Shown here piece after piece: positions 52,557 to 55,417 of a stretch of DNA of 64,000 nucleotides. Positions within the stretch are counted from its first letter, which is position 1, and each line of letters starts with the position of its first letter. Source of the DNA: Candidatus Latescibacterota bacterium (GTDB lineage: Bacteria > Latescibacterota > UBA2968 > UBA8231); contig OZ242318.1 in assembly GCA_965208105.1 (NCBI GenBank), positions 3,392,001 to 3,456,000 on the forward strand. The letters are read 5' to 3'. The notes beneath the pieces are model-generated. The model was not told the DNA's origin. It was given only the letters and a program-made list of their open reading frames with translations, and did not search any database. Both the position numbers and the translations under genes were made by a program.

Positions 52557-52634
52557 TGGTGGGCGATGCCGGGCTCGAACCAGCGACCCCCTGCTTGTAA
52601 GGCAGGTGCTCTGACCAGACTGAGCTAATCGCCC
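52557..52634 (-). tRNA. tRNA-Val (TAC)
   Basis: GGGCGATTAGCTCAG...CCTGC-CT-TAC-AA-GCAGG...GGTTCGAG...ATCGCCCACCA; cloverleaf with encoded CCA. Confidence 0.97.
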
Positions 52635-54967: not shown

Positions 54968-55002
54968 AAAAAAACCGGGCGCACCCGCAGGCGCGCCCGG
55001 TT
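54968..55002 (-). terminator. Intrinsic terminator
   Basis: aaccgggcgcgcc-tgcg-ggtgcgcccggtt stem running into a U7 tract on the minus strand. Confidence 0.85.
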
Positions 55003-55070
55003 AGCAATCAGGACGGCGGCCCGTAAAGGCCGGACGTCCCACCCCAGGTGGCGATCACCTGGATGTTGCT

Positions 55071-55109
55071 TCAGGTGATCCACCTCCCTGTGGTTGATTG
55101 ACTACTCAA
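55071..55109 (-). CDS. 12-aa small ORF MSSQSTTGRWIT
   Basis: TTG 7 nt after GGAGG within an exceptionally long SD; TGA at 55073-55071. Confidence 0.5.
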   Translation of the reverse strand: MSSQSTTGRWIT

Positions 55110-55417
55110 TGGACCACCTCCTTTCTGTTGGGCAGGGGACGCGTGTTCAATCCGCTGCGCGTTGCGGTTGATTTACCTGCGGCCGTGGCCGCAGGGCGGT
55201 ACCATGTACCCGAAAATTTTAATGGAATATAGGTATTTCCCGGACCGGAATGCAATGGGTTTTTCATCTCCGGCCGCGAGAACTTCCTGTCGAATTTGAT
55301 CTCGAGGAGATTGACCCGAAATCGAGGCAGTGCAAACTTGATGGGTCCGGTCCCGGGATTTACCTTCACACCGATTCTGTTGCGGGAATCGTCACCAGGC
55401 ACTGAAAGGACCAGATC

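Follow-up and report, generated by a model that had tools for sequence, protein, structure and literature searches.

Why should a small bacterial RNA carry the complement of the whole free 3' tail of 16S ribosomal RNA (rRNA), place a 12-codon open reading frame (ORF) directly behind it, and repeat within this ORF a stretch that resembles the same tail? The question is raised by a locus of Candidatus Latescibacterota (NCBI GenBank assembly GCA_965208105.1, contig OZ242318.1) that was analysed within a window, i.e., the whole stretch of 64,000 nucleotides (nt) from position 3,392,001 to 3,456,000 of the forward strand; coordinates given below without further label are those of the window. The element occupies the minus strand from 55255 to 54968 and consists of a promoter, a structured 5' part, a long Shine-Dalgarno (SD) sequence, the 12-codon mini-ORF, alternative hairpins, and a terminator. 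The original prediction, made from the sequence alone, took it for a stand-alone structured RNA that binds, sequesters, or helps to mature the small ribosomal subunit, or else for a micropeptide mRNA with a conformational switch. The analysis described here partly supports that interpretation. The element is a real, single-copy, conserved, and expressed RNA gene, and we lean, by a small measure, towards an independent small RNA (sRNA) gene that works as a translation-operated switch or ribosome sensor, in which the act of translation and the rearrangement of the RNA, not the peptide, would be under selection.

When the sequence was re-read, every feature that had been described was recovered at its position on the minus strand. 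The parts of the element are as follows.

55226 to 55255, minus strand: promoter, read from the sequence, with TTGCAT (55255-55250), an 18-nt spacer, and TATATT (55231-55226)
55127 to 55219, minus strand: structured 5' part with hairpins at 55195-55176 and 55171-55147, from sequence and folding
55110 to 55126, minus strand: long SD (SD1), AGAAAGGAGGTGGTCCA, complement of the entire single-stranded 16S 3' tail with one G-U pair
55071 to 55109, minus strand: mini-ORF, TTG AGT AGT CAA TCA ACC ACA GGG AGG TGG ATC ACC TGA, 12 sense codons and stop
55083 to 55088, minus strand: inner SD-like GGGAGG (SD2), ending 9 nt 5' of the stop codon
55072 to 55084, minus strand: strand b, GGTGGATCACCTG, made up of the final four codons plus part of the stop
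55073 to 55082, minus strand: 16S-tail-like stretch TGGATCACCT inside the mini-ORF, read from the sequence
55047 to 55061, minus strand: strand c, CAGGTGATCGCCACC, partner of strand b in a 13-base-pair (bp) helix with a 2-nt bulge
55044 to 55050, minus strand: strand d, CACCTGG, anti-SD-like, pairing with CCAGGTG (55062-55056) as an alternative local hairpin, or with SD1
55044 to 55062, minus strand: stretch CCAGGTGATCGCCACCTGG downstream of the ORF, read from the sequence
55011 to 55039, minus strand: variable 3' hairpin, from sequence and folding, absent from four clades (e.g., L009, L012, L013, L014)
54968 to 55002, minus strand: intrinsic terminator with a 13-bp stem (55002-54973) followed by seven T to 54968, on which the terminator scan agrees

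Distribution, neighbours, and RNA of the element

In a BLAST-type search, 21 of 41 related genomes, a set that includes G000, gave the element; in f1, as the GTDB family of the source genome is called here, it was present in 18 of 24 genomes (f2 and f3 are sister families). A pattern scan of one genome per species gave 102 loci, 67 of which are clear members and the remaining 35 chance matches or look-alikes. All 67 come from metagenome-assembled genomes (MAGs), mostly labelled Latescibacterota or Gemmatimonadota, with a few carrying another phylum label or none. Together with the loci of the genome search, and after removal of identical copies, they make up the 63 distinct sequences used in the counts below. 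The core covariance model detects exactly one copy in 58 of 63 f1 genomes, with scores of 66.9-106.6 bits except for G014 (38.6 bits) and G125 (32.6 bits, at a contig end), and the five f1 genomes that gave no match are 75-91% complete. Weaker matches were obtained in both f3 genomes (35-44 bits) and in 15 of 30 f2 genomes (about 28.5 bits), and none in 55 genomes from eleven other families of the phylum. Conservation on the scale of an entire bacterial family puts the signal far beyond chance.

Flanking genes are shared by members of one clade but not between clades, and the commonest neighbour family reaches at most 26 of the 59 loci compared (counted before four more were added); downstream genes vary among clades, and in several of them the next gene appears convergent. 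In the window, a divergent gene for a PhyH-HEAT protein stands on one side, and downstream there is an NAD-dependent epimerase gene followed by a UxuA-like gene. The epimerase gene has the same orientation as the element, begins 155 nt past its terminator, and has its own candidate promoter (TTGACT, 17-nt spacer, TTTATT). The intrinsic terminator of the element is kept in relatives, and TTGC.. with a 17- or 18-nt spacer and TATATT is also found upstream of homologues, about 110-150 nt 5' of their SD. The promoter in the window, whose -35 box matches the consensus in only 3 of 6 positions, was left uncalled by a consensus promoter scan of the window. In three f2 loci (L140, L141, L146) a conserved promoter-like TTGACA-N17-TATACT, followed by AGGAGAGGAGGTGAG and a TTG start, lies about 100-200 nt past the terminator of the element, another strong-SD unit adjoining it.

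The stretch is present in sponge, marine, and coral-reef metagenomes. In metatranscriptomes, contigs of 151-214 nt from 4 runs of 2 studies cover only 54995-55192, some of them being versions from related species; parts left uncovered by these contigs are not evidence of absence. The flanks are bare of RNA contigs except for one relative's contig (run X20) in the downstream epimerase gene. One sponge metatranscriptome (run X18, record 5, window 55071-55125) also holds the version of another genus, and because the loose contig ends match G021/L083-type sequence, several species of the family seem to express the element in one community. As the neighbours are unconserved, the promoter and terminator are the element's own, and the RNA contigs are limited to it, the element is a stand-alone unit and not a simple leader, in agreement with the original prediction. 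The core genome of an uncultured sponge-associated lineage thereby gains an RNA gene that is nearly universal and highly expressed.

The 16S tail, the mini-ORF, and the alternative folds

The single detected 16S gene of the genome ends in ...GGCTGGATCACCTCCTTTCT. Comparison with this actual 3' end bore out the proposed 17-nt match, in which SD1 pairs over its full length with the last 17 nt of 16S, with one G-U pair. The 4.85-Mb genome has 22,201 GGAGG sites, counted over both strands, and with at most one G-U allowed SD1 is the longest tail complement among them; only the antisense of the 16S gene equals its 17 pairs, and the next in length has 15. Thirteen of its nucleotides, GAAAGGAGGTGGT, are invariant in all 63 family sequences, and 14 are kept in 59. 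The complementarity ends at the mature 16S 3' end and does not reach into the spacer. SD1 invariably has G where a perfect 16S complement would need A. This wobble G pairs with U (36 sequences) or C (18) of strand b, with C of strand d in 50 of 54, and, in the largest clade, with C of the 5' segment RCCGCY, which suggests that SD1 is constrained by internal partners besides the ribosome. SD motifs are in use in this genome, being enriched at -13 to -9 of first ATGs with a peak of 8.8% vs about 2% background.

Other long SDs were noticed at separate loci. The 15-nt GAAAGGAGGTGGTCC, the same string as SD1, occurs in a 5' untranslated region (UTR) at G000:C1:1237000-1237230 (minus strand, outside the window), 3' of a TTGACA-N17-TATTAT promoter and about 95 nt 5' of a gene that begins MRSFKLTFLAGAMAAMIAG; no start codon lies at SD distance from it. 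Exceptionally long SDs (AAGGAGGTGATTC... and AGAGGGGAGGTGATC...) are also found in two look-alike genes, at about 59502 of the window (minus strand) and at G000:C1:4462094 (plus strand), and in both are followed by ATG GCA GA(G/C) CGC GAA. A second stand-alone mini-gene lies at G000:C1:3902100-3902300 (plus strand, outside the window); in it a hairpin and the 14-nt tail complement AGAAAGGAGGTGGT precede an ATG-started ORF of 15 codons, MGRNRAVSDSIASVM, and a terminator ends the unit. The proposal that this mini-gene (C1:3902188) represents a second family was rejected, as it was not found in 40 family genomes. Apart from SDs, a coding stretch (...GAGGAGGTGATCCAGGCGTGGATCGACTACAAGCGCGAGG) is repeated without change over at least 46 nt at about 15081 of the window and at G000:C1:40392 (both minus strand); its occurrence at two distant loci suggests a recent gene duplicate.

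The mini-ORF is kept in all 63 sequences, with 9-13 codons (12 codons in 50, 9 in 5, 13 in 3, 10 in 3, and 11 in 2). It starts with TTG in 47, GTG in 11, and ATG in 5, and stops with TGA in 57, TAA in 4, and TAG in 2; the third stop position is G only if the second is A, hence never TGG. Differences in ORF length are whole codons, and the loop directly after the stop measures 6-20 nt in any phase. The distance from SD2 (..AGG) to the stop is 9 nt in 52 sequences and 10 nt in the other 11, and distances of 9-11 nt were read by eye in f2, f3, the Rfam family Ms_IGR-5 considered below, and two look-alikes. The encoded residues are much less constant. The inner GGAGG is kept as nucleotides, the residues it encodes vary (GR, GG, RR, WR, AR), and its codon phase shifts; close relatives carry N/K and C/R substitutions at codons 4-5. 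The peptides of f1 (MSSNCTAGRLIT-like), f2 (MSEMTSGGGCR), f3 (MIATTRRWVV), and Actinobacteria (..RTREVAVR) differ. Both sister families have the same long SD, with GGAGG 10 nt (f2) and 9 nt (f3) from the stop, and the nucleotides AGGTGGCTGTC, common to f2 and Actinobacteria, fall in a different reading frame in each. Because the peptides differ among lineages, shared nucleotides change frame, and close relatives carry residue changes, the peptide itself is probably not what selection keeps. Codons 2-3 are AGT AGT in 44 of 63 sequences, though AGT makes up only 7.2% of the genome's Ser codons, a bias that may reflect slow decoding or a need for weak structure. Two further ideas about the ORF were rejected. 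A type I toxin mRNA does not agree with the hydrophilic, Ser/Thr-rich peptides, and the promoter scan called no antisense promoter; for programmed frameshifting or reinitiation after the stop, the sequences show no slippery site, conserved overlapping start, or conserved out-of-frame ORF.

Strand b resembles the 16S tail and is complementary both to SD1 (strand a in the helix names) and to strand c. Pairs were counted for four candidate helices on the 63-sequence core alignment. In helix b:c, formed by the last codons and the stop with CAGGTGRTC.., 95.5% of cells are paired vs 89.2% in shuffles; four of its pairs show compensatory change, with 48 such cells, and none of 500 shuffles reaches its score. 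In f3 this helix is wholly recoded (GAGGUGGGUCGUCUGA with UCAGACGGCCCACCUC) yet kept as 14-16 bp. Helix c:d (CCAGGTG with CACCTGG) is paired in 99.5% of cells, with one side that never varies, so that no covariation is possible, and the two helices of SD1 are paired in 98.1% (a:b) and 93.6% (a:d). The long SD, the ORF, and the stem are thus conserved in relatives as the original prediction demanded (58/63 f1 genomes; ORF in 63/63; b:c covarying). Its claim of a 16S-tail mimic inside the ORF holds in part: the match is exact only in the window's own clade, and, because elsewhere strand b covaries with its partner, rRNA mimicry as such is not conserved.

RNAalifold was applied to 30 of 35 candidate full-length RNAs of the largest clades (L053, L087, L099, and L117, of different 3' architecture, and L071, which has N, were left out; the ends of L033 and L068 were extended). 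It predicts 80 pairs, 22 of them with compensatory change, and lengthens b:c into one long interrupted hairpin that buries SD2 and in which CAGG pairs with CCUG of strand d; in the largest clade, the 5' segment RCCGCY is paired with GGUGGU of the SD. Within the structured 5' part, which is absent from the f2 form, ACGCG...CGCGU pairing flanks a conserved AACG.CGCGCAG.GG.TTG motif. The 266-nt RNA of the window folds at z = -5.4 vs shuffles. Two folds can be defined, fold A with b:c formed and SD1 open, and fold B with a:b plus c:d. They are mutually exclusive, as had been proposed, with a predicted difference of 1.8 kcal/mol in the window sequence, and the terminator stem plays no part in the alternative pairings. 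The picture of a short, translated-looking ORF set in mutually exclusive SD/anti-SD folds is therefore supported by ORF conservation and helix counts. The CCAGGTG/CACCTGG hairpin was also picked up on the plus strand by the terminator/hairpin scan. A closing stem of ORF codons 3-5 with the region before the terminator, seen in the minimum free energy structure, was rejected because G001, the nearest relative, does not keep it; all that is predicted for the largest clade is an invariant GUAC/GUAC pairing. A kissing contact between GUUG of the 5' loop and CAAC of a hairpin loop was noticed by eye in some clades only.

A proposed switch operated by translation, and the competing explanations

In the proposed mechanism, SD1 would pair with the whole free 16S tail and load a ribosome on the 12-codon ORF, the 3' half of which (SD2, the last four codons, and the stop) would be hidden in the long hairpin with the anti-SD-like strand. 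Translation of the ORF would have to open hairpin b:c. With the stop codon in the A site, SD2 ends 6-7 nt from the P-site codon, and 6-7 nt is within the optimal SD-to-start spacing. Because this is the spacing used at initiation, the terminating ribosome would likely be held at the stop. The released 3' strand could then refold into the CCAGGUG/CACCUGG hairpin or pair with SD1. The output might be a read-out of translation capacity or of free ribosomes, delivered either by anti-SD/SD-like strands that, once exposed, act on other RNAs, or by ribosomes held by the RNA. The analysis shows the gene status, the maintenance of the ORF, helix b:c, the spacing, and the family relations; the parking of ribosomes and the output are inferred.

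Several results weigh against this mechanism. Translation of the mini-ORF is read from its conservation, and the weak TTG or GTG starts in 58 of 63 sequences may mean that efficient translation is unwanted. The pairings of SD1 (a:b and a:d) cannot covary since SD1 is invariant. Fold A is the one predicted to be more stable in 50 of 54 cores, with a mean advantage of 5.4 kcal/mol over fold B, and two-state bistability is accordingly not supported as a general property of the family. The idea that a ribosome at the stop occludes SD1 was discarded, the modelled change in accessibility being inconsistent in 11 hand-picked members. The RNA contigs lack strand and exact ends, and DNA carry-over in RNA libraries is possible.

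It might be argued that the element is a micropeptide gene, its function residing in the 12-residue MSSQSTTGRWIT and the role of the long SD and the hairpins being merely to set the expression level. The ORF is conserved throughout together with its frame and stop codon (63/63), and an M-S-S N-terminus is found in most f1 sequences, with Ser2 encoded by AGY and TCN alike; M-S also begins 19 of 20 CC2171-type ORFs (21 loci examined). The peptide nevertheless differs across f1, f2, f3, and Actinobacteria with conserved nucleotides in different frames, the inner GGAGG persists while residues change, non-synonymous changes occur at codons 4-5 in close relatives, and there are no conserved neighbours for modification or export, so that a functional peptide appears unlikely. 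The same small share of belief is due to a non-coding RNA that titrates or escorts 30S subunits (as a sponge, an aid to hibernation, or a protector of the 3' end in maturation) with an incidental ORF. Such a binder would account for 13 invariant nucleotides directed at nearly the whole free tail, far beyond the need of initiation and the longest such site in the genome, as well as for mostly weak start codons, for an RNA abundant enough to assemble from metatranscriptomes when its neighbours fail to, and for the same long SD in CC2171 and Ms_IGR-5. It leaves the whole-codon length changes, the pattern of allowed stops, and the fixed SD2-to-stop spacing unexplained without translation, and the complementarity stops at the mature 16S 3' end; because frame and stop codon are strictly conserved, pure non-coding binding fits poorly.

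A leader or attenuator acting in cis on the NAD-dependent epimerase gene, through regulated read-through of the terminator, is suggested by the orientation of that gene 155 nt past the terminator and by the attenuator-like layout of a short ORF with alternative hairpins. This explanation is very unlikely and was rejected: the neighbours are unconserved, downstream genes differ by clade and several appear convergent, the terminator stem lies outside the alternative folds, the epimerase gene has its TTGACT-N17-TTTATT candidate promoter, and the RNA contigs end at the terminator.

Comparison with other regulatory systems and Rfam families

In attenuators of the trpL/thrL type and in ermC-type leaders, translation of a short ORF picks between exclusive hairpins formed from four repeated segments. 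The window element shares the short ORF and the mutually exclusive hairpins, but it is a gene of its own with no conserved downstream operon, and its terminator does not compete with the other folds. In Flavobacteriia, an extended strong SD of rpsU probes for ribosomes with an available anti-SD in an SD-ASD (anti-SD) autoregulation whose product is bS21 (PMC7797042, PMC13000453). The unusually strong and extended SD is common to both systems; the window element has no bS21 product, its genome uses SDs, and the same RNA build is found in Actinobacteria. An ASD sequestration like that of Bacteroidia was set aside, being weakened by the SD enrichment at first ATGs and by this actinobacterial build. 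The prfB and dnaX frameshift sites combine an internal SD within an ORF with RNA structure, the prfB SD standing 3 nt from the P-site codon. A GGAGG-type element in the ORF at a fixed short distance to the stop, together with RNA structure, is also found in the window, where the distance to the stop is, however, 9-10 nt and where reading of the sequences found no slippery sequence and no conserved out-of-frame continuation.

In gathering mode, Rfam gave no match in the element's region or in 16 related loci, and hence no curated aptamer or riboswitch family; the sole match of the whole window in this mode is a transfer RNA gene at 52560-52634 (minus strand). The caution on novelty voiced in the original prediction is justified by likeness below threshold to two families. 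CC2171 was validated by Northern blot in Caulobacter. The full model of RF01867 CC2171 matches the window at 37.4 bits (E = 3.3e-6; gathering score 75), a score that comes mainly from the SD and the terminator, and the relative L033 at 25.8 bits. Of 121 alphaproteobacterial genomes, 19 hold true or near members of CC2171, and 6 of these exceed the cut-off. Like the window element, they have their own terminator and a 16-nt tail complement, GAAAGGAGGTGATCCA, with a start codon directly after it and a small ORF that opens with M-S and includes an anti-SD of the CCUCC type or a mimic of the 16S tail. In 20 of 21 loci examined, caacnGAAAGGAGGTGATCC and a start codon precede an ORF of 21-32 codons, with M-S as its first residues in 19 of the 20. 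In contrast, the window ORF has 12 codons; CC2171 lacks the inner GGAGG before the stop, and its SD1 has A, not the wobble G, in 18 of 20. The fuller CC2171 pattern (an ORF of 21-32 codons beginning M-S-H/S/N and containing CCUCC, and a closing stem before the terminator) is not matched by the window element, whose shorter ORF has an inner SD in its stead and whose predicted closing stem is not kept in G001. In CC2171 and sub-threshold relatives of Alphaproteobacteria (L126, L147-L164, L127), a conserved small ORF stands behind the 16-nt SD in all, and many have GGAGCAGCCTC near the ORF end; from these sequences, the CC2171 family looks like a small mRNA or a dual-function RNA. CC2171 is also reported as confirmed by Northern blot in Methylorubrum, where the responsible condition is unknown (10.1101/2022.01.24.477521).

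The second family, RF02471 Ms_IGR-5, gives no match with the window at E up to 10 and none with the f3 form at E up to 0.01, whereas the f2 form scores 39.1 bits, just below the gathering score of 45. Ms_IGR-5 is an sRNA originally described from Mycobacterium smegmatis. True members were detected in 43 of 141 actinobacterial genomes, with 20 over the cut-off (39/137 and 19/137 if four unpublished genomes are set aside, of which G300 is over the cut-off and G330, G402, and G283 are below; the loci L190 and L200 of these genomes did not enter the parsing and the f1-model scoring). The f1 model gives only 11-20 bits on actinobacterial Ms_IGR-5 loci, at the same site. Of 31 loci examined, 23 could be parsed. 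They are stand-alone sRNA units with a long SD, GGAAAGGAGGTGGTCC, that has the same wobble G in 20 of the 23 parsed ORFs; the ORF is of 12-13 codons in 20 of 23, starts with TTG, ATG, or GTG, and contains an inner GAGGTGG 11 nt before the stop, complementary to a downstream ..GACAGCCACC strand. This build of long SD, short ORF, inner SD, downstream CCACC partner, and stand-alone unit is that of the window. The differences are that the SD2:anti-SD helix of Ms_IGR-5 forms over a long range with additional hairpins inside it, where the window has a local hairpin; that its 5' UTR is short vs about 95 nt of structured sequence; and that it belongs to another phylum. The gene context of four Ms_IGR-5 loci appeared variable, ORF calls being noisy in these high-GC genomes. 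In Streptomyces, Ms_IGR-5 is listed among expressed sRNA units (PMC8079986, PMC8780764).

Two look-alikes bear the same marks. In a MAG labelled Candidatus Eisenbacteria (L114:5300-5660, plus strand; 16.8 bits with the f1 model), promoter-like TTGACT, a structured 5' part, and AAAAGGAGGTGATCCA precede a TTG-started 14-codon Ser-rich ORF, MDSSRSSSVEVASS, with GGAGGTGG 11 nt before TAG, a CCUCC strand past the stop, and a terminator. In a MAG labelled Thermoleophilia (L110:7270-7440, minus strand), GAGAAAGGAGGTGGTCC is followed by TTG, a 14-codon ORF with GGAGGTG at 11 nt from its TAG stop, and the motifs CCAGGTG/CCTGG/CCACCTGG; RF02471 gives this unit 23.3 bits and the f1 model 19.8 bits. A literature search found no functional study of CC2171 or Ms_IGR-5, their discovery papers (Landt 2008; Li 2013) lying outside its coverage, and nowhere found the anatomy or the motif strings printed as an RNA feature, supplementary tables likewise lying outside it (the small coding-sequence lists of PMC4117421 may have the CC2171 ORF). 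Literature matches to the A-variant motif string are 16S primers.

Judged by its sequence, the window element is a diverged branch of a cross-phylum family, below both Rfam thresholds. Two experimentally detected, unexplained Rfam sRNA families share one anatomy with it: an SD for the whole tail, a tiny ORF whose frame is kept as its peptide drifts, SD2 at an initiation-like distance from the stop, and an anti-SD strand that hides the end of the ORF. If the reading as a translation-operated switch holds, RNAs of the Ms_IGR-5/CC2171 type would be reporters or buffers of ribosome availability, not usual base-pairing sRNAs. A bolder proposal, which we regard as doubtful, is that the element forms, together with Ms_IGR-5 and, as a variant, CC2171, an ancient cross-phylum class of "ribosome bait" whose only task is engagement by ribosomes and that captures 30S by complete anti-SD pairing, has about 12 codons translated, parks the ribosome at the stop on SD2, and in this way meters or buffers translation capacity. 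If this were true, the class would be for the ribosome the counterpart of what 6S RNA is for RNA polymerase.

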